Positions 2,285 to 29,430 of a stretch of DNA of 33,776 nucleotides are shown in pieces. The DNA is from Chiloscyllium plagiosum (lineage: Eukaryota): positions 77,578,339 to 77,612,114 of the forward strand of contig NC_057718.1 of the NCBI RefSeq assembly GCF_004010195.1, read 5' to 3'. The first letter of the stretch is position 1. Each line of letters starts with the position of its first letter. The notes under the pieces are model-generated. The model was not told where the DNA came from. It ran no database searches and saw only the letters and a program-made list of their open reading frames with translations. A program made the translations under genes and the position numbers.

Positions 2285-3467
2285 TTTAAAATAATTGTGA
2301 TCAATATTGAAAATTGTTTTATCAACACTATTGATAATATATATTTCAAAATGATGTAGAGCCAGTAGTTGGTGGGCAAAACTCTCATCACTGCATTAAA
2401 TGCACTGCTTGTGGCTATTCAGATAATGTTTGTTCAGTTTGAAAGAAATGAAGTTCTGTGAAGGACTTTTAAACAGCTTTCAAGTATTGCTTGTTAATGT
2501 TAACAGATTTATGATCTATTCAAAGATTTCCAAATATTATTATAATGTTTGTGAGTTCAGTTTATGATGATACAAGATGCATGGTTTGAGGGGTAAGAAG
2601 AGTGTCTAAGGTGTTGAGGAGAAAAGGGGGCAAGGTGGGTAAGGCGGAGAGGAATTAAGAGAGGGTGAGAAGTGAAGTGAAACATAGAATGCAGGGATAG
2701 CTGAGAGAGGTAAGGGTTGAGAGGCAGCACTAGACTACTAGGCAAGACAGAAGTAATATGCTGAAGAGCTGCCCCCCCAGCGTATCCACTGCTGGTTACT
2801 GTCTTGCTGCTGATTTGAAGCTGAACTGCTGGACTCCCAATCCTGAACCTCATTGTGTCCTCTGCTGCTCCTGTCATGATGCTGTGATGAAGCTGAAGTA
2901 CTGGGCCCCTGCGTCTTGGAGATGCTTTGACAGAAGTGATGCAAATAACGAAATACACAGAAGTCCTTTTTTAGTGTAATACAAGCATAAACTGGTTGTT
3001 TGCCAATTTCTTTTGAAGAAATTATGCAACTTGTATTATAGCTACATCAAAAAGTTTCAAAACTTTCTAGGCCATTGGTGTCATCAATATAGTCACCATA
3101 TAATAGTCCAGTATGCTTTTAAATCTGAGACCTTGTTTTTGTATTTTCTGTCAATGATTTCTATCTTTCTGTGTTCTGATTGCAACACTGAGTGTGTAGC
3201 TAGTGAGAGTATATTGCACCATAAAGTCATGATCATGTTCCAAAACTTTGAAGTACATATGGATGTATTGAACTTTCATTTATAATGTGTTTATTTCAAA
3301 GATATGTAGGCAAACGATGGCTGATGATGTAAATTCTGTGGCTGATTGGAAAGGAGGTCTGGAATGTCACACCTGAGGGAATCAAGATAATTTCAAACAG
3401 CAAACTTCAAAAGGAGAGAGGCAAGTCAAACTGGACTGTGATCTCCTGTGGCTACATGCTGATTACA

Positions 3468-4165
3468 AAGTTAAAAATCACACAACACCAGGTTATAGTC
3501 CAACAGGTTTAATTGGAAGCACTAGCTTTTGGAGCACTGCTCCTTCATCAAGTGGTTGTGGAGAACACAATTGTAAGGCACAGAATTTATAGCAAAAGTT
3601 TACAGTATGATGTAACTGAAATTATACATTGCAAAATACCTTGACTGTTTGTTAAGTCTCTCATCTGTTAGAATGACCATGATAGTTTCACTTCTTTCAT
3701 ATGTAAATTACAAAAACCTTTTTTAAAAGTTACATTCTCAGGTTAACTGTAACAATTGGTATCAGCCAAATAATATGTTGAAGGTGTTAGCCCCCTGTGT
3801 TCCCTGTCTATGCCATAATGTTTAGACTGATTCTAATCTAAAACGTGAGTTAACAGAGTCTTACATGGATTCATGCAGTTTTTGAGCAAAATACAATGTA
3901 AGTCTGCAAGTACAAATTCACTCCACAAACATATATGTATATGTGTGCATTTGGGTTTGTGTGTTATGTGTGTGTGTGTGTGCCTGTCTGTCACACTGTA
4001 AACTTTTGCTATAAATTCTGTGTCTTACAATTGTGTCCTTCACAACCACCTGATGGAGCGGTGCTGCAAAAGCTAGTGCTTCCAATTAAATCTGTTGGAT
4101 TATAACCTGGTGTTGTGTGATTTTTAACTTTATACACCCCAGTCCAACACTGAAATCTCCAAATT
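3468..4165 (+). mobile_element. Non-autonomous Penelope-like fold-back element (family B) with two decayed HHR motifs
   Basis: Inverted arms at about 3468-3610 and 3991-4131, with an unpaired 34-nt tail at 4132-4165. Perfect 12-bp TSD ATGCTGATTACA at 3456-3467 and 4166-4177. HHR-like TGATGAAGGAGCAGTGCTCCAAAAGCTA lies in the left arm (minus strand). Confidence 0.85.
3967..3982. repeat. (TG)n microsatellite inside the PLE
   Basis: TGTGTGTGTGTGTGTG seen directly. Confidence 0.9.
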
Positions 4166-4654
4166 ATGCTGATTACACCCTGCTCACAGCAGAAAGCTAA
4201 CTTCTGCTAATTGTGTACAAATTGCAGACCTTACTCCCCTTTGAAAAGTACACAAGTATAGGGGTTAAAAACTTATGGTCTGTGTGTGCTAATGGGAAAA
4301 GATGTGTTCCATGTGTAGTTAAAATGAAAATAAGTATTTCTCCCTTTATCTCTTTCTCACTCCTTCTCTCTGTTTCTCATATTTTCTCTGTCCTTCTGTC
4401 TTTTTATTTCAAAACCTGAAAGTAAGCAAAATTGTAGTCTCAAGGAAACATGACAAAGGTCTTTCAGCTTGCCTGAAAAGCCAATCTCTTGCCTACTAAT
4501 ATCAGAGACATTGGTATTACTTAACATGACAGTGTCAATATCCCATTGTCTATGCTTTATGGAATTCAGAGACATATCCATTTTTAAAAAAATATTTATC
4601 TTTTTTGGGCTCACCTCTTATTTCTCATGGCTGTGCATATTAACACAAAAAACA

Positions 4655-5455
4655 TGGTGGAGGGAGTGAACGTTGAAGATGTTGAATGGGTTGCTATCAA
4701 GCAAGTTACATTGTCCCGAAGGGTGCCATGTTTCTTGAGGGTTGTTAGAGCAGCACTCATCTCAGCAAGTGGAAACTATTCCATCACACTCCTGACTTGT
4801 GCATTGTAGAATCCAGACATACCTTGATGTGTCATATAGGGAGTGACTCACCACAGAATTCCGTGCCATTGATAGATGTCTTGTTGGCAGAATATTTATA
4901 TGGCTCATTCAATTCACTTTCTAATTAATGGAAACCTCTGGTATGTTGATAGCGAGGAATTCATCTCTGGTAATGTCACTGAATGTCAAGGAGCAAGAAT
5001 TAGATTCTTTATTGTTGGGGATGTTCATTGCCTGGTACTGGTCATCTCAAACCCAAATGTTGTCCCAGTACTAATGAATTTGGACATGCATTGCTTCAGT
5101 ATCTAAGGAGTTGTGAATAGTGCTGAACATCGTGCAATCATCAATGAACATGAAACATCTGATAAACAGAAGGTCCTTGATGAAGGAGCTAAAAGTGTTT
5201 GCACCTTGAACACTACATTGAGAAGTTCTGCATTGGTATCCTGTAACTAATATGATTGTTCTCCAACAATAACACCATCTTACGACTCCAACCAACAGAG
5301 AGTTTATCCTTGACTCCCACTGTTTTTAGATTTTCCAACCCCCAACACTCCATCAAGTGTCAAAGTTAGCCACCGTCACCTCTCTTCCTGAGTTCAGCTC
5401 TTTTCTCCTTGTTTTGACCTGTAATGAGTTAAAATAGTCAGGAGCTGAGTGACTC
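4655..5455 (-). mobile_element. Old degenerate LINE (CR1/L2-group) reverse transcriptase fragment
   Basis: ORF 5071..5295(-) has FSSFIKDL...MFIDDCTMFSTI (decayed INDL...FADD RT motifs). It shares TATTCCATCACACTCCTGA with the copy near 18630. Confidence 0.75.
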
Positions 5456-5810
5456 TGACATTACTGTCTTTCAGTGAATGCTTTGTTAATCTAAAAAGAA
5501 GAAATCAATCTTTGTCCCATTAGACAAACATGAAATCTGCAATTTATCTTGACAATTGTTCTTTGGAGAGCATAAAAATCATATGGCCTTAAATGAAACC
5601 TTAATGACAGAAAAAAGACCTATGTAAATCTTTGAAACTCAAAACAAGAGGAAAACAATTGCATTGTTCTCACAACCTTCACTGCTATCTTATCTTTTCT
5701 GAATGGTATTGGGTGATATGGAGATAATTTTTGTCACCAAACTATCAACGGTGATGGATATCATTCTCTTAATAGTTGCTGTTAAATTCATATTTCTTCC
5801 TCACATTCTC

Positions 5811-6490
5811 TCAAGACCGTTCTCTCCGTAACTACCTGGTCAGGTCCACGCCCCCCTACAACCCAACATCCTGTCCTGGCACCTTCCCCTGCCACTGCAG
5901 GAATTGCAAAACCTGCGCCCACACCACCTCCCTCAACTCCATCCAAGGCCCTAAAGGAGCCTTCCACATCCGTCAAAGTTTTACCTGCACATCCACCAAT
6001 ATCATTTATTGTATCCGTTGCTCCCGATGTGGTCTCCTCTACATTGGGGAGACTGGACACCTCCCCGCAGAGCGCTTTAGGGAACATCTCTGGGACACCC
6101 ACACCAATCAACCACACCGCCCTGTGGCCCAACATTTCAACTCCCGCTCCCACTCTACTGAGGACATGGAGGTCCTGGGCCTCCTTCACCGCCGCTCCCT
6201 CACCACCAAACGCCTGGAGGAAGAACGCCTCATCTTCCGCCTCGGAACACTTCAACCCCAGGGCATCAATGTGGACTTCAACAGCTCCCTCATTTCCCCT
6301 TCCCCCACCTCACCCCAGTTCNNNNNNNNNTCTCTCCACCCTTCAGGCACTCTGCCTATATTCCTGATGAAGGGCTTTTGCCCGAAACGTCGATTTTACT
6401 GCTTCTCGGATGCTGCCTGAACTGTTGTGCTTTTCCAGCACCTCTAATCCAGAATCTGGTTTCCAGCATCTGCAGTCATTGTTTTTACCT
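5811..6490 (+). mobile_element. 5'-truncated Penelope-like element (family A): GIY-YIG endonuclease C-terminus plus pseudo-LTR
   Basis: ORF 5776..6420 reads CHCRNCKTC...FTCTSTNIIYCIRCSRCGLLYIGET...RFREH...PVAQHF...EEERLIFRLGTLQPQGIN, a PLE-type GIY-YIG domain. It is followed by an HHR and a CCAGCATCTGCAGTC tail. Small N gap at 6322-6330. Confidence 0.92.
6361..6395 (+). ncRNA. Minimal type I hammerhead ribozyme, core intact
   Basis: CTGATGA (6364-6370), A, stem II GGGC-TTTT-GCCC, then GAAACGTC with palindromic ACGT as helix III. Predicted cleavage after GUC at 6391. Confidence 0.8.
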
Positions 6491-6496
6491 CAATAG

Positions 6497-7139
6497 TGTA
6501 ACAAAGTTGTTCCTTTAACAACGTTATGCTGTCCTTGGAATTTTCTTTCAGAAAGTTTATAAAAGACACAGACTCACAAAAATCCAGGGTTGAAGGGGTT
6601 CAGGGCCAAGTTGATTATAACTAACAGATACTGCCTCAGGCAGAAGGCTATCAAGTTTTAGAAAAAACACTTGTACAATGAAAGGGGAGTGGCCAGTTCT
6701 CCCAACTCAGTTTTCCTCCGGTTTGGTTTGGTTTGGTTTTAGTAGTAGTGTTGAAAACGTCGCTGGACCCAAAGAAGCAGGTCCAGGCAGAAACTCCTCT
6801 CTCTCTCTGACTTCTCTCTGTAAGGCCCTGGGTTTGATTTTACCTTTTGTGCCAAGCGGTGTTTATGGGGATTGTCACAAGTATTTGGAGCAGCATCATT
6901 AGGTTGGGATAATCTGTTGGGTCTTTAGATAGGTTAAGTCATTCTATACTCTGTTCTCTTTTGTGTGTGTTTCATTCAGTAATCTGGCTCATAAATTCTG
7001 TTTTCTTTAAAACTAAATGGCTTGACTAGCAGCATCACTCTTGGAAAATTTACCTTACACCTGCTTAAAACAACTAGTAAAGTTAGGGTATGGGTTACCT
7101 TCTTGAAATGCTTGAACAGATCTGGCCTAGTCCATAACA
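6497..7139 (+). mobile_element. Solo LTR, 643 bp
   Basis: TGTAAC...ATAACA termini, flanked by 5-bp AATAG (6492-6496) and AACAG (7140-7144), a TSD with one mismatch. No coding content. Strand is tentative. Confidence 0.65.
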
Positions 7140-7514
7140 AACAGTCTTCTAACTTTCTTCTTTGTTAGACTTTGCTGTTCAGGCTACTAATTTGCCCTTT
7201 TATCTCTTTAATTTGGCTTTGCACTGTTCCGGGGTCTGCAACCTGATTTTAAATTGCTTCTGTGGTCCTTGACTTCCTTTACTGTGAGCTACATATGTCA
7301 CTTGTCCACTATGGTAGTATTACTTGATCTGAGCTATAGAACAGAGAACAATGCAGTGCAGAACAGGCCTTTCAGCCAAATTGTTGCACCGACCTGTGAA
7401 CTAAGCTATGTCCATCACCCTCCACTATTCCATCATCTTCCATTTGCTTATCAAAGGACTGTTTAAATGCCCTTAATGTGGCTGAGTTAACTACATTGGC
7501 AGGCACATGCCCTT

Positions 7515-8426
7515 GAGGGGAAAGTGAGGACTGCAGATGCTGGAGATCAGAGCTGAAAATGTGTTGCTGGAAAAGCGCAGCAGGTCAGGCAGCATCCAAG
7601 AAGCAGGAGAATCTATGTTTCGGGCATGAGCCCTTCTTCAAGAATGAGGAAAGTGTGTCCAGCGGGCTAAGATAAAAGGTAGGGAGGAGGGACTTGGGGG
7701 TGGGGCGTTGGAAATGCGATAGGTGGAAGGAGNNNNNNNNNNNNNNNNNNNNNNNNNNNNNNNNNNNNNNNNNNNNNNNNNNNNNNNNNNNNNNNNNNNN
7801 NNNNNNNNNNNNNNNNNNNNNNNNNNNNNNNNNNNNNNNNNNNNNNNNNNNNNNNNNNNNNNNNNNNNNNNNNNNNNNNNNNNNNNNNNNNNNNNNNNNN
7901 NNNNNNNNNNNNNNNNNNNNNNNNNNNNNNNNNNNNNNNNNNNNNNNNNNNNNNNNNNNNNNNNNNNNNNNNNNNNNNNNNNNNNNNNNNNNNNNNNNNN
8001 NNNNNNNNNNNNNNNNNNNNNNNNNNNNNNNNNNNNNNNNNNNNNNNNNNNNNNNNNNNNNNNNNNNNNNNNNNNNNNNNNNNNNNNNNNNNNNNNNNNN
8101 NNNNNNNNNNNNNNNNNNNNNNNNNNNNNNNNNNNNNNNNNNNNNNNNNNNNNNNNNNNNNNNNNNNNNNNNNNNNNNNNNNNNNNGACGGCGGATGATG
8201 CACTGTACATGGAGATTGGTGGGGTGGTAGGTGAGGACCAGTGGGGTTCTGTCCTGGTTGCGATTGTAGGGGCGTGGCTCAAGGGCGGAGGAGCGGGAAG
8301 TGGAGGAGATGCGGTGGAGGGCATCGTTGATCACGTCTGGGGGGAAATTGCGGTCTTTGAAGAAGGAGGCCATCTGGGTTGTACGGTATTGGAACTGGTC
8401 CTCCTGGGAGCAGATGTTACGGTATT
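7515..8426 (-). mobile_element. Penelope-like element (family A) nested in the CR1 3' end, spanning an N gap
   Basis: Perfect 13-bp TSD GGCACATGCCCTT at 7502-7514 and 8427-8439. The minus strand encodes the PLE RT thumb/linker ICSQEDQF...FFKDRNFP...RTPLVLTYHP. Decayed HHR at about 7612-7643. Confidence 0.88.
7733..8186. other. Assembly gap (N run)
   Basis: Continuous N bases. Confidence 1.
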
Positions 8427-9944
8427 GGCACATGCCCTTACCATTCTCTGAGTGAAGAACCTGCCTCTAACATCTGTCTTAAATCTATCACCACCGCCCC
8501 CCCCCCCCCCGCCCACTTCAATTTGCAGCTATCCCCCCTTGTACAAACAGATGTCATCATCTGAGGAAAAAGACTCTCACTGCTTATCCTATCTAATCTT
8601 CTGATCATCTTGTATGTCTCTATTAAATCCTCTCTTAGCCTTCTTCTCTCCAATTAGAACAGATCCAATTCCCTCAGCCTTTCCTCATAAGACGCTTGCT
8701 TCAGACCAGGCAACATCCTGGTAAATCTCCTCTGCACCTTTTCCAATGCTTCCACATCCTTCCTGTAATGAGTCGATCAGAACTGAACACAATACTCCAA
8801 GTGAGGCCACACTAGCGTTTTGTACAGTTGCAGCATGACATCATGGCTCCAGAACCCTATCCCTCTACCAATAAATGAACACACAGTATGCCTTCTTAAC
8901 AGCACTATCAACCTGGGTGGCAACCTTCAAGGATCTATGTACATGGACATCAAGATCCCTCTGCACATCCACACTACCAAGAATCTTTCCATTGACCCAG
9001 TAATCTGTCTTCCTGTTATTCTTTCCAAAGTGATTCTCCTCACATTTATCTGCATTGGACTCCATTTGCCACCTTTCAGCCCAGTTCTGCAGTTGAATCA
9101 AGTCTCCCTGCAACCTGCAACATTTGTCCATACTGTCCACCACTCCACCAACTTTAGTGTCACCTGCAAATTTACCAATCCATCACCTATGCCTACGTCC
9201 AAGTCATTTATAAAAATGACAAACTGCAGTGGAGCCACAACAGATCCTTGCAGCACACCGCTAGTAACCGGACTCCAGGCTGAATATTTTCCATCAGTCA
9301 CTACTCACTGCCTTCTTACAGAAAGCCAGTCTCTAATCCAAAGTGATAAATCACCTTCAATCCCATGCCTTCTCATTTTCTCCAGTAGCCTACCATGTGG
9401 AACAAGGCTTTGCTGAAGTCCATGTACACTACATCAACTGCCCTACCCTCATCCACATGTTTGGTCACCTTCTCAAAAAACTCAGTGAGGTTTGTGAGAC
9501 ACGATCTGCCCTTGATGAATCCATGTTGACTATTTCCAATCAAATTGTTGCTCGCTAGATGATTATAAATCCTATCTCTTACAATCCTTTCCAAACCTTT
9601 TCCTACAACAGACATCAGGGTTATCTTTACTGCCCTTCTTGAACAAGGTCACAACATTTGCAATCCTCCAGTCCTCTGGTACTAAACCTGTAGACAATGA
9701 CGACTCAAAGATCAAGGCCAAAGGCTCAGCCATCTCCTTCCTAGCTATAAGTATCTTCCTTTCTTCTAGCTTTGTCAGTCATTAACTGAACTATTTTATA
9801 AAGTTTTCCCTTGTCTACCAGGCATTTCAAATCTTAGTCATGGAACTCACAATGTCTGTCTGCTCGCTGGCGGAACATCGACTCAGGTCTGCAATCAGGT
9901 ACAATTAACATTTGCATGGTAGGGATGAATACTAAGACAATGGG

Positions 9945-10181
9945 GAGTCAAGAGTGTGGTGTTGGAAAAGCACAGCAGGTCAGGCAGCATCCGAGGAGCA
10001 GGAGAATCGAAATTTCGGGCATAAGCCCTTCATCAGGAATAAGCTGCTTCATTCCTGATGAAGGGCTTATGCCCTAAACTTCAATTCTCCTGTTCCTTGG
10101 ATGCTGCCTGACCTGCTGTGCTTTTCCAGCACCACACTCTCGACTCTGCTCTCCAGCATCTGCAGTCCTCGCTTTCTCCTA
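9945..10181 (+). mobile_element. Near-perfect palindromic mini-PLE (family A) with two opposed HHR motifs
   Basis: Arms 9945-10040 and 10051-10146 are inverted around a 10-nt loop, with an unpaired tail at 10147-10181. Direct repeat CTAAGACAATGGGGAG at 9932-9947 and 10179-10194. Confidence 0.88.
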
Positions 10182-10644
10182 AGACAATGGGGAGGTTAGA
10201 TAGTAGGTCTATCTCCTTTGAGAGCCACTGATGTCCACCAACTGAAGCCTGTAATGCATCATGATATTGTTTTGTACTTAATGCACTCCTCAGCATTAAC
10301 TGTATAGGAGCCAGCACCTTCTACAATAATTAAATGTAATCTTCGTGGAGGAGTGTACATGGTTTCTATATACCCATCTGCACTAAAGCGATGCAGTATT
10401 CTGGCTGCCACAAACAAACATTTAGGATAGCTTAGGGATGAGGAAGATGGAGCATAAATTTTCAGATGCTGCTCTGCATGTGAAGTCAATTATAAGGAGG
10501 ATGATGTCTTAAACCTGATGAATGAAAGATACTACCTTACACACCTTTAAAATGTTCTTCATAGCCACCTCTCTCTACTTTGAGACCAAGAAGAACCCTA
10601 AAAAACTGTTCAAGACCAAGTGTATTTGTTTACTGGAATTGATC

Positions 10645-10975
10645 GCATAGTGGTAAAATTACAGGCCAAGTAAATCAGAAGTCCTTGCTAATTCTGGGTG
10701 CACAGGTTCAAATCCCATCACAGCAGTGCAATTAATTAAATTATTTACTTAATCTGGAATGGAAAGCTTGTTTCAATAATAATGACTGACTGTAAGAACT
10801 CATGTGGTTCACTGCTGTCTATCCTTCTTTGGTCTGGCATACACGTGACTCCAGACCTAAAACAATCTAATTGACTCTTAACTGCCCTGTGAAATAGTCT
10901 AACAAACTACTCAGTTGTGGCAGAGTAGGAATGGGTAACACATGCTGGCCATGACAGCAATGCCTATATATAATA
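10645..10975 (+). mobile_element. Degenerate tRNA-derived SINE
   Basis: GCATAGTGGTAA (A-box-like) and GGTTCAAATCCC (B box). The body GTGACTCCAGACC...TTGACTCTTAACTGCCCT is shared with the copy at 19920-20226. Confidence 0.7.
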
Positions 10976-11209
10976 AGGAAAATAATATATTTTTCCCTGT
11001 GACTTCTAGAAGGTGAAATCCTGTGAACTTGCCAGAATGGTACTTGAGTGTTTGTGTAGTCTTATAAAGTTTCTCAGAAAATTACAAAAGTTCTGTTTGC
11101 AACTCCACCAGAAATGACAATAAACAAACTTACTTCTAATGGTATTATGGTTAGTATTATTTTTATTCTGAGACTGAAAATCACGATTAAGAAAGAATGT
11201 TAGGATAAG

Positions 11210-11519
11210 ACAGGAGCAAATTACTGCAGATGCTGGAATCTGTACTGAAAGCAACAAATGCTGGAGATAACAGTGGGTCAGACAGTATCCAAGGAGAGAG
11301 AGCAAACTAACGTTTTGAATTTAGATAACTCTTCATCAGAGTTGAAGTGTGGAGGGACAACATTTATACTATAGTTTGGGGGAGGGACATGGGGGTAGTG
11401 GATGTAGGGTGCTGGTGGAGAAATCCTCCACCCACTACACCCACACCTGCCCCATCCAAACTATAGCATACATGCTGTCCCCACACTTCAGCTCTGAGGA
11501 AGTGTCATCTAGATTTGAG
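11210..11519 (-). mobile_element. Fold-back mini-PLE (family C) with decayed HHR
   Basis: Perfect 12-bp TSD TGTTAGGATAAG at 11198-11209 and 11520-11531. Internal inverted arms at about 11317-11400 and 11430-11518. The minus strand reads CTGATGAAGAGTTATCTAAATTCAAAACGTTA, with a CCAGCATCTGCAGT tail. Confidence 0.8.
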
Positions 11520-13140
11520 TGTTAGGATAAGCTAGCCACCAAATGCAGTGAAATCCCTTTAATGAGCGTGTGCAGTCACTTGTTTATTAAATCTCCAGGA
11601 AGGTTTTCTGTGTGTTGGTCTTAACGCCTTATACTAAACACAGGTTAAATGCATATTGGAATTTAATAAACCCATCTTAGCAACTTCACAAACACTTTAG
11701 TGTCTAAAGTATTTCTGAAAATTCCTCACGTAACTCAACAGAGGCTGCCCTGACTGCAGTCACTTGGGGATTGTTCCAGAGTAAGCAACAAATATGACAT
11801 TTATTCCCTTTCTCCAGATAGACCTGTGACCCTCAGCTTGTGTCTTACAGATAACTAATCAATAATGAATTTATTTTAATATCATGTATACATTGGATAG
11901 ATTTTCACCTGAAGTCTTTTTTATCAACAAAATTCATTGAATAGAGTGCAGATCAAATGCTTCATTATTATGGAACAGACCATTGGGAACAGCTCACCAT
12001 TGTGGGTAGTGATTTATTTTTCATGTTTAGTGACTTAAAGGAAATGATGGAAAATAATTAACAAAATGTTGGGGTAAAGTATTTTTAATAGGACTGTCAT
12101 ATCTTGTGAAAATAGTAGCTCTGAACATGATTCTTACATGAAATCAATGGCAGAGTCAAACACAAGAGCTTCAAATGCAATATTATACTATATGTAAGAC
12201 TAACAGTGTATTATTAATTTGTTGAGAGGAGTGCAGAGGGTCAAAATCACCCTAACAATCTTGTTTCATGCAGCATTAAAGAAGAGCATTGGGATTTGAT
12301 AGAGCAATAAATTCCTCCATTGTTCAAATTCTTAATAATTAGTAAGTTCCTGCTTCACACTAAAATGTCCAAAAAGAATGTTTTAAACAGTACAGAAATT
12401 ATGTACACACCCAGCTAATGAAACTTGACGCTAGTGATTTTGGAGAAACTTGATGCATGAAGCCAGTCACCAGAAAGAGATAAAACTCATTAATTACAAT
12501 AGTGTGGTGCAGTCAGGCATTGCAATTCGATGTCAGGATCAGCACAATGGCATCCCAAGAATGTGCAACAGTTGAACAGCAGATTAGAAACCATTTGACC
12601 TCCAGAGAATGCTGGTTGGTGCTCATTGCAGTAACACTGAAAAACCTCACTGTGGCATCAAAGCTCCACAGTGAAACAAGACTTGCTGTTGCTACATTGT
12701 TCTCGTCTGCCTGATCCAGCAGCAATGCGTACACACACAGAGGCACACACACCCTTTAAAATAACAGTATGGTACTACATAGCTTGTCCTCTAATTGACC
12801 CCTCTGTGACAGATTGACTGCAGTGAATATTTTTTCATCTTGTCAGCATATGCTGCAAATACTCACTCTAAGCCTCTTAGAGACCCCTTGACCTCTGTTG
12901 TATGAGTTATTTATGGCCCCTTGTGAGTCCAGAAACCTCACAAATACTATTTCTTTAACATGGAGACCATTTTTATATGGTCGCAGATGGCAACATTACA
13001 AAGAGGACTTTACTTAAAAAGAAAACAGCAAAATACTTTATCTTCACCATGATTGCAGTCAACATTCTCTCAGATAGCCAAGAAAATAGATCCACAAAGA
13101 TAATGTTACAGATCAGTACTGTCAATTTTGTCAGCTACTT

Positions 13141-13375
13141 GGAACTCTGGATCAGAAGGTTATAAGATGAATTACTATTCCAGAGACTTCAGCATATGAT
13201 GTAGGCTGATGCATCAATGCAGAGTCTTGTTCTGGCAGAAATGCTATCTTTTACATGAGACATTAGATGGAAACCAAGCCTGCTCTCCCAGGCAGACAGA
13301 AGAGAAGAGCATGAGAGTTCTTCCTGGTGCTCTGGCTTTTCTCCTCAAACTATATCAGTAAAATATATTATTTAC
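13141..13375 (+). mobile_element. Old DeuSINE (SacSINE1/AmnSINE-like) relic; a further piece may lie at about 14036-14130
   Basis: TCAGAAGGTT...CCAGAGACTTCAGCATATGATGTAGGCTGA...GAAGAGCATGAGAGTTCTTCCTGGTG resembles the recalled DeuSINE consensus. Confidence 0.55.
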
Positions 13376-13569
13376 ACATTGACCCACATCTTCTGGTCTC
13401 CAGATAAATGGACCTTACCCTCCATACAAAATTTCTAAAAACTTTAGTTTAAAGTTATTGTTTTTGAGGGTTCCAACAGACCCGGATAGTTATCAGGACA
13501 TACTGGACAACTAAAAACTGGTGTCTGGCAAAACTTCTGGGTAACTGTACAAATGACCACATACAAATG

Positions 13570-13779
13570 GACGGCACGGTGGCGACTGTCTGTGTGGAGT
13601 TTGCACATTCTCCCCGTGTCTGCGTGGGTTTCCTCCGGGTGCTCTGGTTTCCTCCCACAGTGCAAAAATATGCAGGTTAGGTGAATTGGCCGTGCTAAAT
13701 TGCCCATTGTGTTAGGTGAAGGGGTAAATGTAGGGAAATGGGTCTGGGTGGGTTGCTCTTCAGAGGGTCGGTGTGAACT
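13570..13779 (+). mobile_element. HE1-like V-SINE with most of the tRNA head deleted
   Basis: V-domain TGTGTGGAGTTTGCACATTCTCCCCGTGTCTGCGTGGGTTTCCTCCGGGTGCTCTGGTTTCCTCCCACA, with GGCACGGTGGC joined directly to GACTGTCTG. Confidence 0.88.
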
Positions 13780-13784
13780 CCTCT

Positions 13785-13880
13785 TCTCTCTCCGCTGATG
13801 ATGCCAGACCTGTTGTACTAACATTTTCTGTACTACCTGGCAGTCTCCAACATCTGCAGTTCTGTACTTTGCTTTATTTA
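13785..13880 (+). mobile_element. Old PLE 3' tail fragment
   Basis: GATGCCAGACCTG...CTCCAACATCTGCAGT matches the PLE tails elsewhere in the window. Confidence 0.5.
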
Positions 13881-14989: not shown

Positions 14990-15500
14990 TGTGCTACAGT
15001 CAGGGCAAGGGTGGTGCAGGTACCAGATTGCTGGAAGACCAGATCACACACAGGTTCTGCAGCATGGAGAATTCAGACGAGAAATTTGATGTGGTCACCT
15101 GTAGAAGAATTCTGAAGTGCAGGCACAATAATTTGCATGTTTCATTGGGAATCTTAGAAAAAAATCTAAAGGTAATGTCAGACAGCTTGGATGAGTCTGA
15201 CATTAGGAGAAAATGAGGACTGCAGATGCTGGAGATCAGAGGTGAGAGTGTGGTGTTGGAAAAGCTCAGTCAGTCAGGCAGCACCACACTCTCAACTCTG
15301 AGTCTAACATTAACTTGACACAGGGATTTGTGCAAACATATCTCACCCATTTGTGTATGGATGTGGTGGCCACTCCATTCATACTTGCAGTTTCTACTAT
15401 AGCTCAAACCCAGATTGCTATTATGCAAAGTTATTTTTCTGTGACACAACCTTCGACTGCTGCCATCAAGGCTGTGAATTAAAGTTTTCACAGGAGGTCA
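14990..15500 (+). pseudogene. Possible remnant of the Harbinger accessory (second) gene, converging on the transposase
   Basis: ENSDEKFDVVTCRRIL...LKVMSDSLDES continues as NINLTQGFVQ once the PLE at 15206-15298 is removed. It lies tail-to-tail with the transposase pseudogene. The assignment rests on position and recalled similarity only. Confidence 0.4.
15206..15298 (-). mobile_element. 93-bp fold-back mini-PLE (family A), no HHR
   Basis: 14-bp TSD TGAGTCTGACATTA (15192-15205) and TGAGTCTAACATTA (15299-15312). Inverted arms CAGAGGTGAGAGTGTGGTG / CACCACACTCTCAACTCTG, with a tail of about 31 nt. Confidence 0.8.
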
Positions 15501-19696: not shown

Positions 19697-19739
19697 CATT
19701 TTATCTGTACTTCCTGTATCCGAAGTAACTTCAATTATC
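19697..19739 (-). CDS. Weak candidate 43-bp exon (IIEVTSDTGSTDKM)
   Basis: The minus strand reads ATATTTTCTAG|GATAATT...AAAATG|GTAAGT with one open frame. The pyrimidine tract is short and the peptide was not recognised. Confidence 0.3.
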
Positions 19740-19919
19740 CTAGAAAATATGCATCCAATTTTAATTAACTATACATGTTGCATTTTTTACTCTGTCACAA
19801 TGCTCACATTAAACACATAGATTCATACAGGAACTAATAAGATCTGCAAAATCCTGATCTCTAAGATTTTTCAAGCTTTATTTCACAGGATTGCTGGAAA
19901 GGTTATCTCTAAGTGTCCA

Positions 19920-20226
19920 TGAACTGAGTGGTTTTACTATGTAATTTCAGAGAACAGTTAAGAATCAATCACCGTGCTGTGAACCTGGAGTCAGATGATG
20001 GCCAGATCTGGGAAGGAAGGCAGATTTCCTTTCCTAAGGGACATTGGTGAACCTAGTAGGATTTAATGACAATCAGTGGTAGCTTCATGGTTACCATGAG
20101 ATTGATTTTCAAGTTTATTTTAGATTTCACTAATTGAAATTAGATTTGAACTCTTGTGCCTAGAGCATTAGTCCAGATCTCACAATTATTACACTAAAGA
20201 TATTAGCACTTCACTGCTGTCTCTCC
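19920..20226 (-). mobile_element. Degenerate tRNA-derived SINE (same family as 10645-10975)
   Basis: CAGTTAAGAATCAA...CTGGAGTCA...GGCAGATTTCCTT...GATTTGAACTC is the reverse complement of the SINE body and B box. Confidence 0.7.
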
Positions 20227-21029
20227 CTAAAATAACTTGAGAATTCTATTATCCAAGATAGCCAAATCCACAAATACTTACCAATAATCAGGGATGTAAG
20301 AGCATGGCTATTGGAACAGTACAAAGTCTTGCATTCAGGAGGACTAGAGAGAGGTGAGCAAACAGGACTGGTGATAGCAAAGGCATCCTTGAGATTCCTG
20401 AAGGAGCATTGCTACTCCTGCTAACTCAAAAGGAATGTTAAACAATGCGAATGTGGCAGCTCTTGCCTGGTTTTCACTGACCAATTTCCCAACACTGGGA
20501 AACCATGCAACATCAATGGATTTTCAATCAATAAAATGTGGAAGCCCAATGTAAATATGTTGATTAAATATCCATGCTCTCTATACAAGGATATTCGGGC
20601 ACTTCATGATAACAGAGGTGGATGAATTCAGGACAGTTTGGGATTGCATTTTCCATATTGGACTCCACAATTTTCATGACCCTGACACAGTGTAAATGGA
20701 GGGGTTAATATTCATAGTTGCCTACTGTAAGCCAGTATCTTAAATATATCTGCTTATTGATGAAAATTTGTAGTTTGAAGCTGTATTCAAAAATTGACTC
20801 AATATTCTCTTTGCTTTGAGCATAACTAATTGCATTTATTAACAATATACAAAGTTTGCATTAATAGAGAAAACATTGCTCGTATTTTACAGGATGAAGT
20901 TGATAGTTAATGGACTCTGGCCTGGGGGCTGTTGAAAATGTAAATGATAAGATTGTTTTTGAGAAAGCTTTCAAAGATGGAGCACAAATTGGAAAAGTGG
21001 AGAGGTATGGCATGGGAGTTCTGTGTTGG

Positions 21030-21115
21030 GAGTGTGGTGCTGGAAAAGCACAGCAGGTCAAGCAGCATCCGAGGAGCAGGAGAATCAACATTTCAGTCAT
21101 AAGCCCTTTTTCAGG
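21030..21115 (-). mobile_element. PLE family A pseudo-LTR fragment with decayed HHR
   Basis: Nearly identical to 9952-10038. Confidence 0.8.
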
Positions 21116-22429
21116 GCGTTCAGTGCACACCAAAGAGTAAACTAAAGGTCCCAGCAGCAGTCATAGTGAACATAAAGACAGGATATTGGAAAAAGCTATA
21201 CTCTGAAAATGCAAGAATGATCAAAGGTGGAGGCTGTGGCAAGCAGTGTGGGATAATGCAGTGGTAGAGTCTATACAAGGATAAGGATTTTAAACTTAGT
21301 GTGTTATGTGACAACGAATCAGTAAGGATTAGTTAGTGCTTAGTAGTGCAGCAAATGTCTATCTGAAAGGAGTAAGAAAGAAATTAGAACAAAGATGAAA
21401 AAGAAATGATTAAGCAGAGAGAGGACAGGAGAAAAAATATAGAATGCACTTGAAGTGAAAATCATTGTCTCCTTCTCTAAAGTTCTCTTTTCTCATTTCA
21501 GATTCTTCTCTTCCTCTGTTTCAGTATATTTCCCTTCTTTACTTCTGTGATAAATACACATCAAGGGGGAAAGAGACAACGGACAGGTGGAGCAGGAAGA
21601 ATAGAGCTGCAGTCAAGATCATTGTGAGACAGAGAAAGGTAAACACTGAAAGAGTGGCAGACAAACAGAGAGAGAAATGGGGTGGGACAGAACAAATATA
21701 TATGAGAGACAAAGAAGAGAGAGAAGAAAGAGGACCGTACTTGTAGAAATATTTATTGACAACACCATCTGAGGGTTTATCAACAAACCATTGCCTTAAA
21801 GTTGCTGCTTTGTAATGCTTTTCCTCCACCTGTTTCAGCTCCATGCTGTTATCAGTGTTGGATTCTGGGGCAGAATCATTCCTGCCTGTTTACATATTGG
21901 CAACAGTATAAGTTGTCATCGGGACTGGGCAATCCCCAATATTAACGCACCGACAGATGAGCTGTTTTAATTGAATGGAAATTATGTGCCCAGTATTATA
22001 ACACCAATGGAAGTTATTTTGGAAAGCTCTGCAGTAGCTTAGAATAATATAAATGAAACATACCTATAGCCAGCAGTGGCCCAAAACTGGCAAAAGTGAT
22101 TTGCTACAGACTTTGCAGCCTACAAAAAAATCTTGCAAGAGAATTACAGAAAACCTTGTCAGAATTTTCTTTAGTTTGCACTTAATAAGAATGAGACTTA
22201 TTTCTAATAGTCGTGGTTTTTGAAATTTAATGATCACTAGTAAGATCTTCATTAAGATTCCTAATGGTTTTGCTTGATTGTAATTTTAATGGAGGATTCG
22301 CAGTGCAAGATGTTAGAATGAAATATCCAGGATTTTTAACATGCCACTCACTCAAAGAATTTGCCAGTCCTACAAATTTTCATGCAAAGATTTCAAACTT
22401 GGACTTTGAATGAGACAAGTCCAGATTTT

Positions 22430-23720
22430 AAAAGATTTTTAAATTTAAAGGGTTTATTCATGGGATGTGGGCATCACAGGCAATCTGGCATTAATCAACT
22501 GTCTTCAGTTGCCAGAGACAAGGCAGTGTTCAACCCCCTGCTTGAATTGTTGCAGAATCTGTGGCGAAGCTGTTCCCAAGTTGCAAGGGAGTTTTCTAGT
22601 GCTGATATAAAAGTAACAATATATTTTCAAGTAGGATAATATGTGTCTGTGAAGAGAACCTGAATGTGATATTGTTCCTGTGCACCTGTTCTTGTTATTG
22701 TTCTGTGCGGAGACTGAGGAGAGTCATAGGTTTGGGGCATGCTGTTAATTAAGCCTTAGTGAATTGATGTGGTAGTCTTGCGCACACTATAGGAGTAGGG
22801 AATAAATGATTAAGTTAATGGCCAGTTGCAATCAAGTGAGCTGCTTTGACCTTGATGGTGTTAAGCTAATCTAGTGTTATTTATCCAGTCAAGTTGAGAA
22901 TGTTCCTTGGCACTCCTCATTTGAGTTTTGAAGTGAGTGAAAGTCTTTGTGGGATGAACCAATTGCTGCAGAATTCCCAGACTCTGAGCTGCTCTTATAA
23001 CCTTCGTATTTTGTCGTTAGTTCGGTTACATTTCTAGACAATGGCGAACATGAGGATACTGAAGGTAGGTGATTCAATAATGTCAATACTACTGAAAGGC
23101 AAGAAAAGGTGGTTAGACTTTCTCTTCTCAGAAATGGTCATTGTCTAGAGTTTGAGCATTGAAAATATACTGATACCTTATGCCAAAATGTCGACTCTCC
23201 TGCTCCTCAGATGCTGCCTGACCTGCTGTGCTTTTCCAGCACCACCCTTTTTGACTCTGACTTCTCCAGCATCTGCAGTCCTCACTTTCTCCTACTTATC
23301 AACCCGAGTTGGATAATGTACAGGTCTTGCTTTTTGCGGACATGAGCTGCTTCATTATTTGAGGAGTTACAAATAGTTGATTCACAAATTGAAGATTCTG
23401 TTATCGTCAATGAAGATCCTGCCTTATGGTCTTATGATATATGATTGATGAAGAAACTCATTAGGGTGAATACACTGCTCTAAGAAGCCACTAAAGTGGA
23501 TTCCTGGGATTAGATGATTAGCCTCCAACAGCCACAACTACTTCAGTTTCTTCTAGGGATGAATTGCCATTGATTACAATTTATTGGGGCTGCTTGATGC
23601 TATATGCAATCAAATGCTGTCTTGAAATCAAAGATAGTCATTCTCATCAAACCTCTTGCTTGGACAAAGGCTATAATGATGCTTGAAGCCAGGTTGCATA
23701 GTTACACCAATTAATTTGGT
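22430..23720 (-). mobile_element. Old degenerate LINE (same family as 4655 and 18220 copies)
   Basis: TTTATTCATGGGATGTGGGCATC 3' end; CAATCAAGTGAGCTGCTTTG and GCAGAATTCCCAGACTCTGA parallel the other copies. Confidence 0.65.
23177..23294 (+). mobile_element. PLE family A 3' tail fragment nested in the old LINE
   Basis: CTTATGCCAAAATGTCGACTCTCCTGCTCC...CCAGCATCTGCAGTCCTCACTTTCTCCTA. Confidence 0.85.
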
Positions 23721-25139
23721 GAGTAGGTTCCTAATATGTACAAGTGAATTTTAATCAGAAGAACATTGCTTTCAATGCTGGGACTGGAAGTGGATGTCAC
23801 TTCTGCTGATGTGTCAGGAGCTGTAATGCATACAATTTTGATGCAAATCATTGCTGCCTGTGGCAGGCATACTTTACATGTGTAATTACGTGATCAGGGT
23901 AGGCAGGAAGTATCCACCTCAACTATGAACTGACTCAATTCCAGGTCAGGCCCGTGAAGGATCCTGTCTTTGCAGGCAGGGAGGACCAAAAGGGAGCCTG
24001 CAGCCAGCTCCTTCACTTGTGTTAAACTTTATTTTAGATTCAAAGAGCAAAGTCTTCCTAGTCTCTGAACTACATGGGCAAATATGAGTCAGCAGGAAAA
24101 TATGGAAAGAGTGGAAAAATTTGATTATTGACAGTGAGAAAGCAATGTCCAATTTTCCACCAAGATATTAACAGTGTGATGAGAACCTTGTTAGTGAGCA
24201 GCAAGAAGCCTATTTGCATGAATTAACATTTCATTATTACCTAATCTCATCTCATTTATAACCAGACAGTGCCAATTTCTGAAATGAATGCCAGAGCAGG
24301 TACCTTGAAGCCTCAGCTTGCTGTTTGTCCCTCTGAGCCTCCATCTTCAACATCTCAAGACATGCTCCATGGGCTGTGACCATGTGCATCCTTCACCCAC
24401 AAAGGCTGACATCAACACCAGCATCTCCATATCATCATGACTCATCTCCAACTCTCTTTAGAATATAGTTCACTACTTCAAAACTGCACTTTGGAATACA
24501 CCCGACAGGGAAATGAGATGAAGCAGTTCATTTCTATCCTGCTGCCAGGCCACTTTGCACTCAGGGACAGGCACCCATCTCATTCATCGGTACAGGGTGC
24601 ACCTCAGGGTGTAGCTTCCTGTCTTAGCTTTGCACTAACTTGGATACTTACTGCATCGCAGTCTTGCCTTGCCCTTTATCAAAACCACATTCAAAACTTA
24701 CAGACTCCCAGTACTTCTATATTGCTTTGCCCTTAAGTACAGACATAAAACTGGATAGCTTTTCATGATAGTCAGCAGTCATCAGTTAAGGGGGTGGACG
24801 TGTTGCTGTATAGCACCACGCTATATCAATGTCAACCTGCAGCTTGTGTCAGTAGCTTATGTGGCAAACATGCTAAATGTGCCTCAACAAAATGGCATGT
24901 GTCAAAGTCTAAGGGAAGTAGTCCTTAGTCAGGTCAAGGGGGACTGTTGTCAGTCTGGGTATCCCACCACAGTCAGTGAAGAGCAGCATCTGATCTCAGC
25001 TGGGGGTTGGATAAAGGCAATCAATTGCTTGGAGGAGTCAGGGCCAAGGGGTCCTATCATTACAGTCCAGGGAGTCGCTAATGGTAAGACTGCAGGTTCA
25101 ATTCAATCAGTCTGGGAATTAGCAGCAAGTCTATTTGAA

Positions 25140-26285
25140 GTCTTAGACCACAGATGTAGGAGCAGAAGTGGACCTTTTGGCCAATCAGGTCTGCTCTGGC
25201 ATTTGATCATGACTGATCACAGACAGCACAGTGACTCAGTGGTTAACATTGTTGCCAGGTTCGATTCCAGCCTGGGGTGACTGTGTGCAATTTACTCAGT
25301 CTTCCCATGTCTGCAAGGGCTTTCACCAGGTGCTCTGATTTCCTCCCATGGTCCAAAGATGTACTGATTAGGAGGATTGACCACTGTTAAAAATTGCCCC
25401 ATAGTATGCAAGCTAGGTGCATTAGGGTTCTGGGGACAGGATGAGTGGGAATAGTTGGTCTGGGTGGGATGCTCTTTGGAAGATCGATGTAGACTTGATG
25501 GACTGAGTAGCCCCTTTCTATGATATGTTTCTCAACCCCATTCTCCTGCCTTCAGTGCCTTACTACTCAAGAACCTATCTATCTCTGCCTTTACAGCCTT
25601 CTGTGGCTATGAGTTCCACAGATTAACAACCCTCTGGCTGAAGAAATTCCCTCTCATCTCAGTTCTAAAGAGTCTTTCTTTCACTCTGAGGCTGTGCCTT
25701 TGGGTAGTAGTCTCTCCTACTAATGGACACTCTATCCAGGCCTCTCAGAATTCTGTAACTTTCATCCGTCAAAACTCCATCAAGTACAGACCCAGAATCC
25801 ACAACTATGCCTCATATAACAAGCTCTTCATTCAACATTCTTGTAAACCTTCTCTAGACACTCTCCAATGCCAGCACATCCTTCCTTTGATATGGGGCCC
25901 AAACCTGCACACAAAATTCCAAATTCAGTCTGATCATAGCCTTATTCAGCTCGAACAATATATCTCTCCTCTTGTAATCTAACCATCTTGAAATGAATAC
26001 TAAAATTTCACTTGTCCTCATAACTGTCAACTGAACCTGTATGTTAATCTGAAGAGAATCCTGAACTTTGACTCCTAATCCCTTTGATCTTCAGATTTCT
26101 GAAGCCTTTCCCCATTTAGAAACTAGTCTGCACTCTATTCTTCCTACCAAACCTTACACTATGCCATATTGTATTCCATCTGCCACTTGCCAATTCTTTT
26201 AGCCTGTCCATTCCCTTCTCATTTCCTCAACACTTTATCTCCTTCCACCAATCTCTGTGTCATCTGCAAACTTAGTAACAATGCT
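25140..26285 (-). mobile_element. Degenerate CR1-clade LINE 3' portion, interrupted by a V-SINE
   Basis: TAGGAGCAGAAGTGGACC tail; CTCTGGCTGAAGAAATTCC. GTGTCATCTGCAAACTT at about 26258-26274 is the minus-strand KFADDT motif. Confidence 0.8.
25222..25520 (+). mobile_element. Degenerate HE1-like V-SINE
   Basis: CAGCACAGTGACTCAGTGGTTAAC head, GGTTCGATTCC B box and V-domain-like GGTGCTCTGATTTCCTCCCATGGTCCAAAGATGT. Confidence 0.8.
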
Positions 26286-27506
26286 TGTTGGAGTCATCCA
26301 TGTCCAGCCGTATTGTGGACTCTGCTAAACCGTCAATGATATGTGATGATAAAGCTGAGTGCTCACATTACTCAGGACCTGTTCTGTTTCTGATATTTCC
26401 ATCATTGATTCACTGGAAATATGATTAATGGATGTAGCTATAACAAAGATTAAGACTGTTATTGCTGTGTTGCAATGAAGGCGCAGAGAAATTGAGGAGG
26501 AACAGCGATGTTAGCAAGTCCGGGACCAGCAGTAACCTCCACCAGCTGCCAAACAGCCTGCACATGAAACGGTCACAGCTGGAGGCCCCTGCAGGATGAG
26601 AAGGTTTTAGACACAGATCCTATTGTCTTCGATGCATTTCTTCCAGATGAGTGAGGCGCAATGCCAGCAGAGACTGAACATGTCACAGACCACCATCTCA
26701 GAACTGGATCAGCTATTGGAGCAGGACCTGCGACATGAAGAGTGGGTGGTCACCCTGGTGGCTGTCGAGGTTACAGCTGCAATAAAGTTTTGTGCAACTT
26801 GCTACTTGCAAGGATCCACTGGAGTCCTGTACGGAGTCACTCAATCCCCAACCCACAAATGTATTAAACTGCTTCATCTCATTTCCCCATAATAAGGTCA
26901 ACGCTGCAGCCCATACTGTTTTCCAGCTTGGAAAACATAGTTGGATTTTCCCAAAGGGCCAGGGCAGTACAAACTGTACACATGTGTTGATAGAACTATA
27001 TCATAAAGCAGCCTACTTCATTAACACTAAAAGGTTCCATTCACTGTACAATCATCTGTGATCGCGACTGCATCTTAGAGTTCTGTGCCAGGTAACCTAG
27101 AACCTGCCAGGGCGCCTTTCACCCTCGAGAATTCTCAGGCTCCTACTTCATTTCAAAGGCCTTGGTTAATGACTGTTATGCAAACCACTGACTGAAGCTG
27201 AAATACGAGGCAACGCATTATTCCACAAGAGTCATGCTGGAGCAGATGATAGGTCTGCTGAAGATGACATTTCAAGCCTGGATTAATCTGACGGGGTGCC
27301 TTTGCAGTATACTTTAGACAGAGTTTGCGTTGCAATCCTATCATGCTATGCTCTGTATAACTGTAGCAGGCAAAAAGGAGATGTCACAGAGACTGAAGCA
27401 GTCTTCCAAGGATGAAGATAAGGATGTTGAGGAGGAAGAATGTGATCTTAAGCATGATAGAGTGCTATGCTATCAGGCAGAACAAGCCAGACAGGATTTC
27501 ATTGGC

Positions 27507-28027
27507 TAGGAGAAGGTGAGGACTGCAGATGCTGGCGATCAGAGCTTAAAAATGTGTTGCTGGAAAAGTGCAGCAGGTCAGGCAGCATCACAGGGACAGG
27601 AGAATCGACGTTTCGGGCATAAGCTCTTCTTCAGGAATGAGGAGGGTGTGCCAAGCAGGCTAAGATAAAAGGTAGGGAGGAGGGACTTGGGGGAGGGGAG
27701 TTGGGAATACGATAGGTGGAAGGAGGTGAAGGTGAGGGTGATAGGCCAGAGAGGGGGTGGGGGAGGAGAGGTTGGGAAGAAGATTGCAGGTCAAGAAGGC
27801 AGTGCTGAGTCTGAGGGTTGGGACTGAGATAAGGTGAGGCGCTCTTCCTCCAGGCGCCTCATCTTCCACCTAGGAACCCTCCAACCACAAGGGATGATTG
27901 CAGATTTCTCCAGCTTTCTCATTTCTTCTCCCCTCACCTTTTCTCAGTCCCAACCCTCAGACTCAGCACCGTAACGTCGATTCTCCTGTTCCTTTGATGC
28001 TGCCTGACCTGCTGCGCTTTTCCAGGG
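27507..28027 (-). mobile_element. Fold-back PLE (family A) with internal deletions and a scrap of GIY-YIG C-terminus
   Basis: TSD TTTCATTGGC at 27497-27506 and 28028-28037. Inverted arms; RLIFHLGTLQPQGM at about 27856-27897 (+). Confidence 0.88.
27604..27637 (-). ncRNA. Minimal hammerhead ribozyme, core intact with one stem II mismatch
   Basis: The minus strand reads CTGAAGA-A-GAGC-TTAT-GCCC-GAAACGTC-GA. Confidence 0.7.
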
Positions 28028-28753
28028 TTTCATTGGCACTTGCTTCCAATAGATGTGAGTTGGGTGAGGTCAACATTCATTGGCTGCAAATTTGTTTGAA
28101 AGAAAAGCAGCCCAAGTTTATTTCGAGGAGCAAATGTAACATTTTTGTTCATCTTTTCTTTGCTTTTTCTGTTTAATAACAGTTAATGTTAACAACTGCT
28201 TGAGGGTTTAACTACATATTATACTCTCACATTGAACATCAGCAAGATGTTATGCTATGCTGGGTGTTAGGGAAAGAATAACCCTCCTTCAGACAGGGTT
28301 TTAACATTAAGGAAGAGTGATCTCTGTAGTTTCATTCTTGCATCTGCAATTACAATGACAAACAGGTGATGATGTCAAAGGCATACATATACAATTGTGA
28401 GATCTAATTTCCAACAAAGTGTAGCCCATGCCACCTATATAGCCTATGAGCTTATTTTATTTTTGTTTCCCTCCCACTATGTGTACTGTGAAGGGCATGT
28501 CCTGGTGGGCAGTGTTTGCACTGGCGCACAGCTGGGCCTAAATATAGTGCTAGTAGCACAAATTCTTTCTGCTGCTGTGGAGTGCTCATTAGCATGCACG
28601 TGGCACTGGGGAAGCACAGCTCATATATAATAGTGAATTATATAATTAATGAATTGTGTGAGAATTCACTTGAGCTCAAGGAGAGATGCTATCTATGAAA
28701 CTTCCAGAAATTGCCGATTTTTATATAATTCAGCCCAGAGCCCTTCATTCCTG

Positions 28754-28889
28754 GTGTGGAGGAGCCAGTGTTGGATTGGGGTGGACAAAGAGAAAAAATC
28801 AAACTACCTGATGAAGGAGCAGTACTCCAAAAGCTAGTGCTTCCAAATAAACCTGTTGGACTATAACCCGGTGTTGTGTGATTTTTTAT
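28754..28889 (-). mobile_element. Mini-PLE (family B) with an inverted segment carrying an HHR that has G12>A
   Basis: CTGATGAAGGAGCAGTACTCCAAAAGCTAGTG at 28808 (+). Flanks CTTCATTCCTG (28743-28753) and CTTCATTCTTG (28890-28900). Confidence 0.8.
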
Positions 28890-28900
28890 CTTCATTCTTG

Positions 28901-29430
28901 TTGACAGCTTCCAGAAAGTAACACTTCTCCTCAACCAAAGCATTTTCTTGGATCCCCCCATCATCTTACCCCGTTCATCCATGGCTGGATACAAAGTGGA
29001 GATGCCAGTGTTGGACTGGAGTGGACAAAGCCACAAATTAAAAGTTATATAATCCGGTGTACCTGTAGTGTTATTTTTGACTGGATACAAAGTATAATAG
29101 CATGGCTCAGCTACTTCTACCAAGACATTCTTGCCCAGGCCATCTGGAAACAGGAGGAGATGCTCTTCTTTAGCAATACAAATAGGAGACACTTCTCCTC
29201 GATCAAGCCAGTCTAAATGGAACTCCGATAGAGGTGTCAGACAGTGGAGAGGTCCATCCAAGGTCTGCATTCGGCCACAGTTCCAGCATGTATGTGCATG
29301 GCTTCTACCCAGGAAAGATAAGCAACTGCAGTGGAAAGGTAGGTCTGTCATATGACCCTTTTGGTCAAAGTCTTGCCATCCATCACTCTCAGCATGGGTT
29401 AGGTAAGGCAATATAAAGAAGAGCAAAGCA
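28901..29430 (-). mobile_element. Possible old L1/Tx1-type ORF2 C-terminal (CCHC) remnant
   Basis: ORF 28689..29426(-) contains CSC...SHAHTCWNC...GKNVLV, resembling the H-x-x-W-x-C knuckle. Highly decayed. Confidence 0.35.
28998..29080 (-). mobile_element. 83-bp mini-PLE (family B tail)
   Basis: GGAGATGCCAGTGTTGGACTGG tail. Perfect 13-bp TSD CTGGATACAAAGT at 28985-28997 and 29081-29093. Confidence 0.8.

Follow-up and report, generated by a model that had tools for sequence, protein, structure and literature searches.

We analysed 33,776 nucleotides of DNA from the shark Chiloscyllium plagiosum (contig NC_057718.1, positions 77,578,339 to 77,612,114 of the forward strand; hereafter the window), in which seven short inserts carrying the 3′ ends of Penelope-like elements (PLEs) had been noticed from the letters alone. 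This original prediction described fold-back elements, each made of a PLE end plus an inverted copy of subterminal sequence and flanked by its own target-site duplication (TSD), and took them either for mobile non-autonomous families or for stereotyped products of PLE integration. All seven inserts begin where it had placed them; they measure 83–698 bp and each is flanked by direct repeats. Below they are named E1 to E7, with A to C denoting sequence families, and arms with and without the terminal tail of the element are called tailed and tail-less.

3456..4177, E1 (insert 3468-4165), family B: TSD 3456-3467 / 4166-4177 (12/12); tail-less arm from 3468 on the minus strand, with a decayed hammerhead at 3551; tailed arm at about 3989-4165 on the plus strand, with a 35-nt tail and a hammerhead carrying a 3-nt deletion.
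9932..10194, E2 (insert 9948-10178), family A: TSD 9932-9947 / 10179-10194 (16/16), overlapping the element ends; tail-less arm 9945-10040 on the minus strand; tailed arm at about 10049-10181 on the plus strand, with a tail of 32-35 nt.
11195..11531, E3 (insert 11210-11519), family C: TSD 11198-11209 / 11520-11531 (12 exact, or 15 with one mismatch); tailed arm on the minus strand, with a decayed hammerhead at 11339; tail-less arm on the plus strand, stopping within the hammerhead at target-site microhomology, about 108 nt short of the tailed end.
15192..15312, E4 (insert 15206-15298), family A, without hammerhead: TSD of 14 bp with one mismatch; tailed arm 15205-15283 on the minus strand; tail-less arm of ~20 nt on the plus strand; 5-nt microhomology at the join.
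27492..28037, E5 (insert 27507-28022), family A: TSD of 15 bp with one mismatch, 10 exact; tailed arm on the minus strand, with a hammerhead at 27634 that has one stem II mismatch.
28743..28900, E6 (insert 28754-28889), family B: TSD of 11 bp with one mismatch; tail plus ~14 nt on the minus strand; tail-less arm 28802-28889 on the plus strand.
28985..29093, E7 (insert 28998-29080), family B-related, without hammerhead: TSD 13/13; tail on the minus strand; degenerate tail-less arm.

Every insert has its own short TSD of variable length, 11–16 bp rather than the 10–16 bp first given. The repeats of E1, E2 and E7 are exact over 12–16 bp and that of E3 over 12 bp, and the other three contain one mismatch each; E6, at 28754, has the weakest, with 8 exact letters. 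In a control, 2,914 pairs of 30-nt zones were drawn at random: no pair had 12 or more exact letters in common, 2 pairs had at least 10 and 44 had at least 8, a rough comparison because the zones searched around the inserts were wider (70–90 nt).

The layout is head-to-head in all seven inserts, with the element 3′ ends pointing outwards and the terminal tail confined to one arm. The inverted subterminal copy claimed for every insert is clear in six but weak in E7, where the two arms show no mutual similarity (905 of 1,000 shuffles reach their score) and the right arm matches other family-B copies weakly (1 and 10 of 1,000 shuffles). Arm-to-arm identity is 131/143 in E1, 93/101 in E2, 75/96 in E3 and 53/57 in E5; E4 and E6 each have one very short arm. 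In five inserts (E1, E2, E4, E6 and E7) the tail-less arm ends 32–36 nt short of the tailed end. The tail-less arm of E6, and probably that of E1, is richer in PLE sequence than the tailed arm. Segment 3611–3988 of E1, which has no second copy in the window, is inferred to be of PLE origin as well.

The inner ends of the arms fall at very different points. Relative to the hammerhead they lie upstream in E1 and E3, at its front edge in E2 and E6, downstream in E4 and E7, and within the open reading frame (ORF) in E5. Both arms of E2 begin 4–9 nt ahead of the hammerhead core, and the tail-less arm of E6 begins about 5 nt before its decayed hammerhead (28808). Both arms of E5 extend into the end of the GIY-YIG ORF, whose last codons the insert holds; they join at 27852 in a palindrome of 8 bp. 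Each arm has an internal deletion, and the tail-less one is 53 nt short. The other pivots are the 5-nt microhomology of E4, a short hairpin filler in E2 and a probable microhomology in E6. All seven junctions are different, and none of the six within-family pairs in the window has a junction in common.

Three distinct families had been proposed, and A (E2, E4 and E5), B (E1, E6 and E7) and C (E3) can be told apart, although A and C prove distantly related (62/89, 0/1,000 shuffles); B, beyond its architecture and the hammerhead core, shows no relationship to A (396/1,000 shuffles). Five further family-A copies, absent from the original prediction, lie in the window, and two of them contain PLE coding sequence:

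5790..6493, plus strand: longer 5′-truncated PLE copy with a CX4CxxC linker, the end of a GIY-YIG/CCHH endonuclease, a hammerhead at 6364 and a tail.
7515-8426 (7502..8439 with TSD), minus strand: 5′-truncated family-A PLE copy with a tail and no inverted arm.
21015..21115, minus strand: solo tail-less family-A end, beginning at the front edge of the hammerhead.
23177..23294, plus strand: solo tailed family-A end, beginning inside the hammerhead.
31054..31181, plus strand: tailed family-A end that opens with ~10 nt of hammerhead core in inverted orientation.

A TSD of at least 7 bp was sought for these copies and was not found for four (5790, 21015, 23177 and 31054); copy 7515–8426 has one of 13/13 (7502/8427). 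This copy carries coding sequence for a reverse transcriptase (RT) thumb across an assembly gap, 71% identical to P0001, a protein assigned by its source to a bamboo shark, and is 88.5% identical to E5 over 218 bp, with the same end. The protein end of copy 5790–6493 is 84% identical to P0001 (the protein comparison gave 3 matches among 222 candidates), and its GIY-YIG domain scores just below the Pfam cut-off (E=1.8e-4, 22.2 bits against 22.6). The window is without an RT core. A CX4CxxC motif precedes GIY-YIG in the translation of 5779–6321; CX2-5CxxC at this place marks Neptune/Nematis elements (PMC8557442), and the linker thus appears to point to Neptune/Nematis, not Poseidon. Family-A ends continue into RT-thumb and GIY-YIG coding sequence and therefore belong to coding PLEs, which supports the proposed origin of the inserts from PLE 3′ ends. 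The short inserts lie at the lower end of a size series of PLE copies, and the 12 PLE pieces together make up about 12% of the window. A scan of metagenome contigs with the family-A motif gave 0 loci.

Both assembly gaps of the window (6322–6330 and 7733–8187) interrupt the two longer PLE copies, close to the 3′ end of each. Within the family-A end (10049–10181, 27507–27640), one frame of about 27 codons begins at an ATG and continues open across the tail, as expected if, as suggested in PMC3846280, the pseudo-long terminal repeat (pLTR) and tail may hold the start of the ORF. At 13797–13875 lies an old PLE-like end that is akin to family A (51/74, 0/1,000 shuffles) but more divergent.

Hammerhead motifs had been reported for five inserts. 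Hammerhead-derived motifs are indeed present in five of the seven, but the strict CUGANGA...GAAA pattern in only two (10036 and 27634, both minus strand); a strict scan of the window gave seven matches, three of them within PLE copies. The cores in E1, E3 and E6 are decayed, E4 and E7 have none, and the left motif of E2 keeps the core and stem II with loss of the stem III pair. No insert has a fully intact hammerhead; the sole intact minimal hammerhead of the window is that at 6364, in the longer GIY-YIG-bearing copy. An Rfam scan of the window gave no hammerhead match and two matches overall, both under the gathering score; one of them, mir-980 at the centre of E2 (31.8 bits, gathering 47), was rejected as reflecting the hairpin. 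A relaxed hammerhead descriptor was unspecific, with 12 of 21 matches outside PLE copies, a spurious match in E2 (10156) and the E5 motif missed.

Transcripts across E2 are predicted to fold as one long hairpin (−181 and −184 kcal/mol), in which only one hammerhead is in sense. Because read-through RNA would make such a hairpin, the hammerhead is probably unable to fold in the inserts. Given this fold, the single sense hammerhead and the report that minimal hammerheads are uncleaved as monomers in vitro (PMC4209133), ribozyme function of the seven inserts appears unlikely. Among contigs placed on E2, the catalytic G of GAAA is mutated in 10–14% of depth and seven other CpG positions in 8–26%, a level consistent with neutral decay.

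The recurrence of junctions was examined on E2, on which contigs from public runs X1 and X5 (organism A) and X14 (organism B) were placed at 80% likeness; X1 may be the source sample. With RNA run X22, which placed 0 reads and so carries no weight either way, these made up 4 of 24 listed runs. Each DNA-type run placed 144,440–180,183 contigs. They contain at least 1,333 distinct joints (15 detailed plus 1,318 more), and each detailed joint has at most 5 contigs per run. Relative to the depth at 10032 plus that at 10059, depth at the E2 centre (10044–10046) is 0.38%, 0.18% and 0.16% in the three runs, and the contigs that cross it vary in letters and by 1–2-nt deletions. Where an empty site was looked for, the left flank was without depth and none of the 15 detailed joints skips the whole insert. 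No identical junction recurs within a family in the window, and none of the few high-depth joints on E2 is E2's own. Junctions unique to each copy, named beforehand as the mark of one-off products, are largely what we found, in the window and in the E2 frame alike.

One-off insertion products fit best, because the junctions all differ, the joints on E2 are many and its centre is rare. We conclude with high confidence that the seven inserts are truncated PLE ends, each likely built anew at its insertion by the enzyme of a coding PLE and not copied as a unit. Anatomy, TSDs and differing junctions support the second option of the original prediction, stereotyped products of PLE integration; its headline option, MITE-like (miniature inverted-repeat transposable element) or retrozyme-like families, finds no support at these loci.

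On the mechanism that we propose, the GIY-YIG domain would nick both strands with a stagger of 11–16 bp, and each nicked 3′ end would prime cDNA on PLE RNA. A start at an outer site would keep the tail, and a start at an inner site 32–36 nt upstream would lose it. The two cDNAs would grow toward each other, stop early, often near the hammerhead, and be joined at microhomology or a short palindrome; fill-in of the stagger would yield the TSD, and the hammerhead would be a passenger of the PLE end. Such a two-cDNA model would explain the fixed outer ends, the variable inner ends and unequal arms such as those of E6. In vitro, the protein of an anole element nicks and extends both strands, its RT begins copying at two internal positions, one on either side of the tail, and the hammerhead is not needed for insertion (PMC11167929).

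Several points weigh against this reading. The tail-less arms of E5 (53 nt) and E3 (about 108 nt) miss the tail boundary; both stop at microhomology with the target site. Families B and C have no adjoining ORF in the window. The recurrence test covers the E2 frame, the other six junctions lying outside it, and the short arm of E4 falls below the length reported in it; depth is not copy number, and the count of joints is incomplete. Hairpin centres tend to break assembly contigs, and the centre depth of 0.16–0.38% is biased low accordingly. Some joints are deep: 10008>10099 reaches 2,220 in X1 and 2,132 in X5 against 0 in X14, with flanks of 9–21; 10040>10114 reaches 2,060 in X5 only, with 25 and 9 in the other runs; and 10040>10145, 10005>10071 and 9997>10103 reach 300–650 in organism A. 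These joints show that particular family-A sequences have recently been amplified. In addition, the anole study saw no difference between strands in start site (PMC11167929), and self-priming is favoured for inverted PLE copies in PMC3846280.

The alternative that survives best, which we regard as possible though still unlikely, keeps one-off products and changes the template to a short RNA born from the pLTR and starting just before the hammerhead, a SINE-like (short interspersed element) use of the PLE end. It overlaps with de novo construction by the coding PLE's enzyme and does not exclude it. The solo copy at 21015, each arm of E2 and the long arm of E6 begin no more than about 10 nt before the core, yet the arms of E1, E3 and E5 extend well past the hammerhead front, and stalling of the RT at hammerhead stems would give the same pattern. 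The largest pile of loose contig ends on E2, at 10040 (1,258–1,667 contigs per run), would suit a short template, but it is forced by E2's own end, and its consensus opens with upstream PLE sequence at an agreement of 0.33–0.34, so that longer copies are mixed with true ends.

Rather more doubtful is that the inverted arm arises by self-priming, with the cDNA or an antisense RNA folding back on itself, and not by priming from both nicked strands. Self-priming has been proposed for PLEs (PMC3846280) and would suit the palindromic pivots of E2 and E5. A simple fold-back, however, copies the first arm, whereas in E6, and probably in E1, it is the tail-less arm that holds far more PLE sequence.

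Joints 10008>10099 and 10040>10114 stand at 100–250 times flank depth; 10008>10099 is found in the two runs of organism A and is missing in organism B. The variant 10097 T>C accounts for 31% and 28% of depth in the organism-A runs, against 0.3% in organism B. These variants may form a young subfamily or belong to a satellite that contains a PLE end. Either mobility or carriage within a satellite or larger repeat could account for the deep joints; because two runs of one species differ, we infer that a variable array is favoured. It is unlikely in our estimation that fold-back stubs of family A other than the seven described here have, in a minority of cases, become self-propagating hairpin mini-elements in one shark species.

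For the seven loci themselves, spread as self-propagating fold-back mini-elements, MITE-like and mobilised in trans by PLE protein, is distinctly improbable. MITEs derive from DNA transposons and have symmetric terminal inverted repeats and a fixed short TSD; a MITE proper was rejected because the tail makes the ends asymmetric and the TSD varies over 11–16 bp. A MITE-like family is also unsupported, the same internal structure not recurring in the window or in the E2 frame: the E2 centre is rare and variable, joints are numerous, no within-family pair agrees, and the high-depth joints specific to organism A, which together with the very high abundance of the family would favour such spread, are not E2's. 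Non-autonomous PLE derivatives do exist (PMC8557442; bioRxiv 2026.07.22.740005). The retrozyme reading, in which ribozyme-processed circular RNAs reinsert, is largely refuted and hardly credible here: five inserts have hammerhead-derived motifs and animal retrozymes derive from PLE ends (bioRxiv 2026.07.22.740005), but the window has no same-strand tandem units (its only tandems are of 7 bp and 16 bp), paired hammerheads face opposite ways with none fully intact, the RNA is predicted to form the −181 kcal/mol hairpin, and minimal hammerheads stay uncleaved as monomers.

The inserts agree closely with published PLE insertions. The typical one consists of an inverted 5′-truncated copy and a 30–40-bp tail (Craig et al. 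2021, PMC8557442, Fig. 2 legend; also the curation guide PMC8969392), and a rotifer PLE has an inverted pLTR, a 31-bp tail, TSDs of 8–10 bp and junction palindromes (Arkhipova et al. 2013, PMC3846280). With such endonuclease-bearing (EN+) insertion units our inserts share 5′ truncation, the head-to-head inverted truncated copy, the one-sided 30–40-bp tail, the short TSD and the palindrome or microhomology at the pivot; they differ in that both halves are mostly trimmed to the last 15–350 bp, in a TSD slightly longer than in the rotifer (11–16 bp) and in the host, a shark. The anole Poseidon element PAc (Frangieh et al. 2024, PMC11167929) likewise has a tail between two RT start sites and both strands nicked and extended, but our coding copy is CX4CxxC-linked, and inverted inserts were not reconstituted in the available part of that study.

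Minimal hammerheads of metazoan PLEs (Cervera and De la Pena 2014, PMC4209133) occur as solo copies from truncated PLEs, and in Schistosoma as opposite-strand pairs separated by 100–700 bp. The motifs described here share their core, the extra nucleotide before stem II and the minimal stem III; unlike in Schistosoma, the two motifs of E2 are less than 20 bp apart, and no shark genome appears in the available part of that paper. Non-LTR (long terminal repeat) retrozymes consist of units in head-to-tail tandem (Cervera and De la Pena 2020, PMC7229834; bioRxiv 10.64898/2026.07.22.740005). They too derive from PLE ends, have type I hammerheads and are reported in one chondrichthyan, but each unit holds a complete hammerhead, whereas our inserts are head-to-head and decayed. 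PLEs have been recorded as expanded in a shark genome (10.1101/443036), and PMC5055719 has nothing on sharks. In the literature searched, Dfam and Repbase lying outside the search, we found no shark-specific description of such fold-back stubs. Fold-back architecture itself, of which the original prediction knew no systematic description in sharks, has been described for PLEs before (PMC3846280, PMC8557442), and pairs of hammerheads on opposite strands have been described too (PMC4209133).

Other repeats surround the inserts. At 1–902, a 259-bp inverted repeat (1–259 / 644–902, 95%) overlaps a frame that weakly matches the GDSL esterases (Pfam E=0.002, below cut-off); this is likely an inverted fragment of a CR1/L2-type long interspersed element (LINE) ORF1, cut by the window start, and not a PLE. 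A LINE RT fragment lies at 8805–9648 on the minus strand (Pfam RVT_1 E=1.1e-6), with similar pieces at 25833–25922 and 33519–33776. The repeat 13587–13691, directly before the PLE-like end 13797–13875, recurs at 25278–25382 and presumably is a SINE. E5 was inserted just after a decayed coding-like stretch (26611–27400), which we take to resemble a Harbinger-type transposase.

The seven inserts are real, abundant and ordinary, and their architecture is not new. For annotation, shark genomes are full of such stubs, which repeat pipelines may call MITEs or ribozyme genes. The origin of inverted PLE ends is called unresolved in the available PLE literature, and the number of stubs could make a good natural data set on how PLEs make them. 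If a few junctions do spread as units, non-autonomous PLE families are being born; the amplified variants of organism A, if truly self-propagating, would represent either a young non-autonomous PLE family or a satellite with a hammerhead, now arising.

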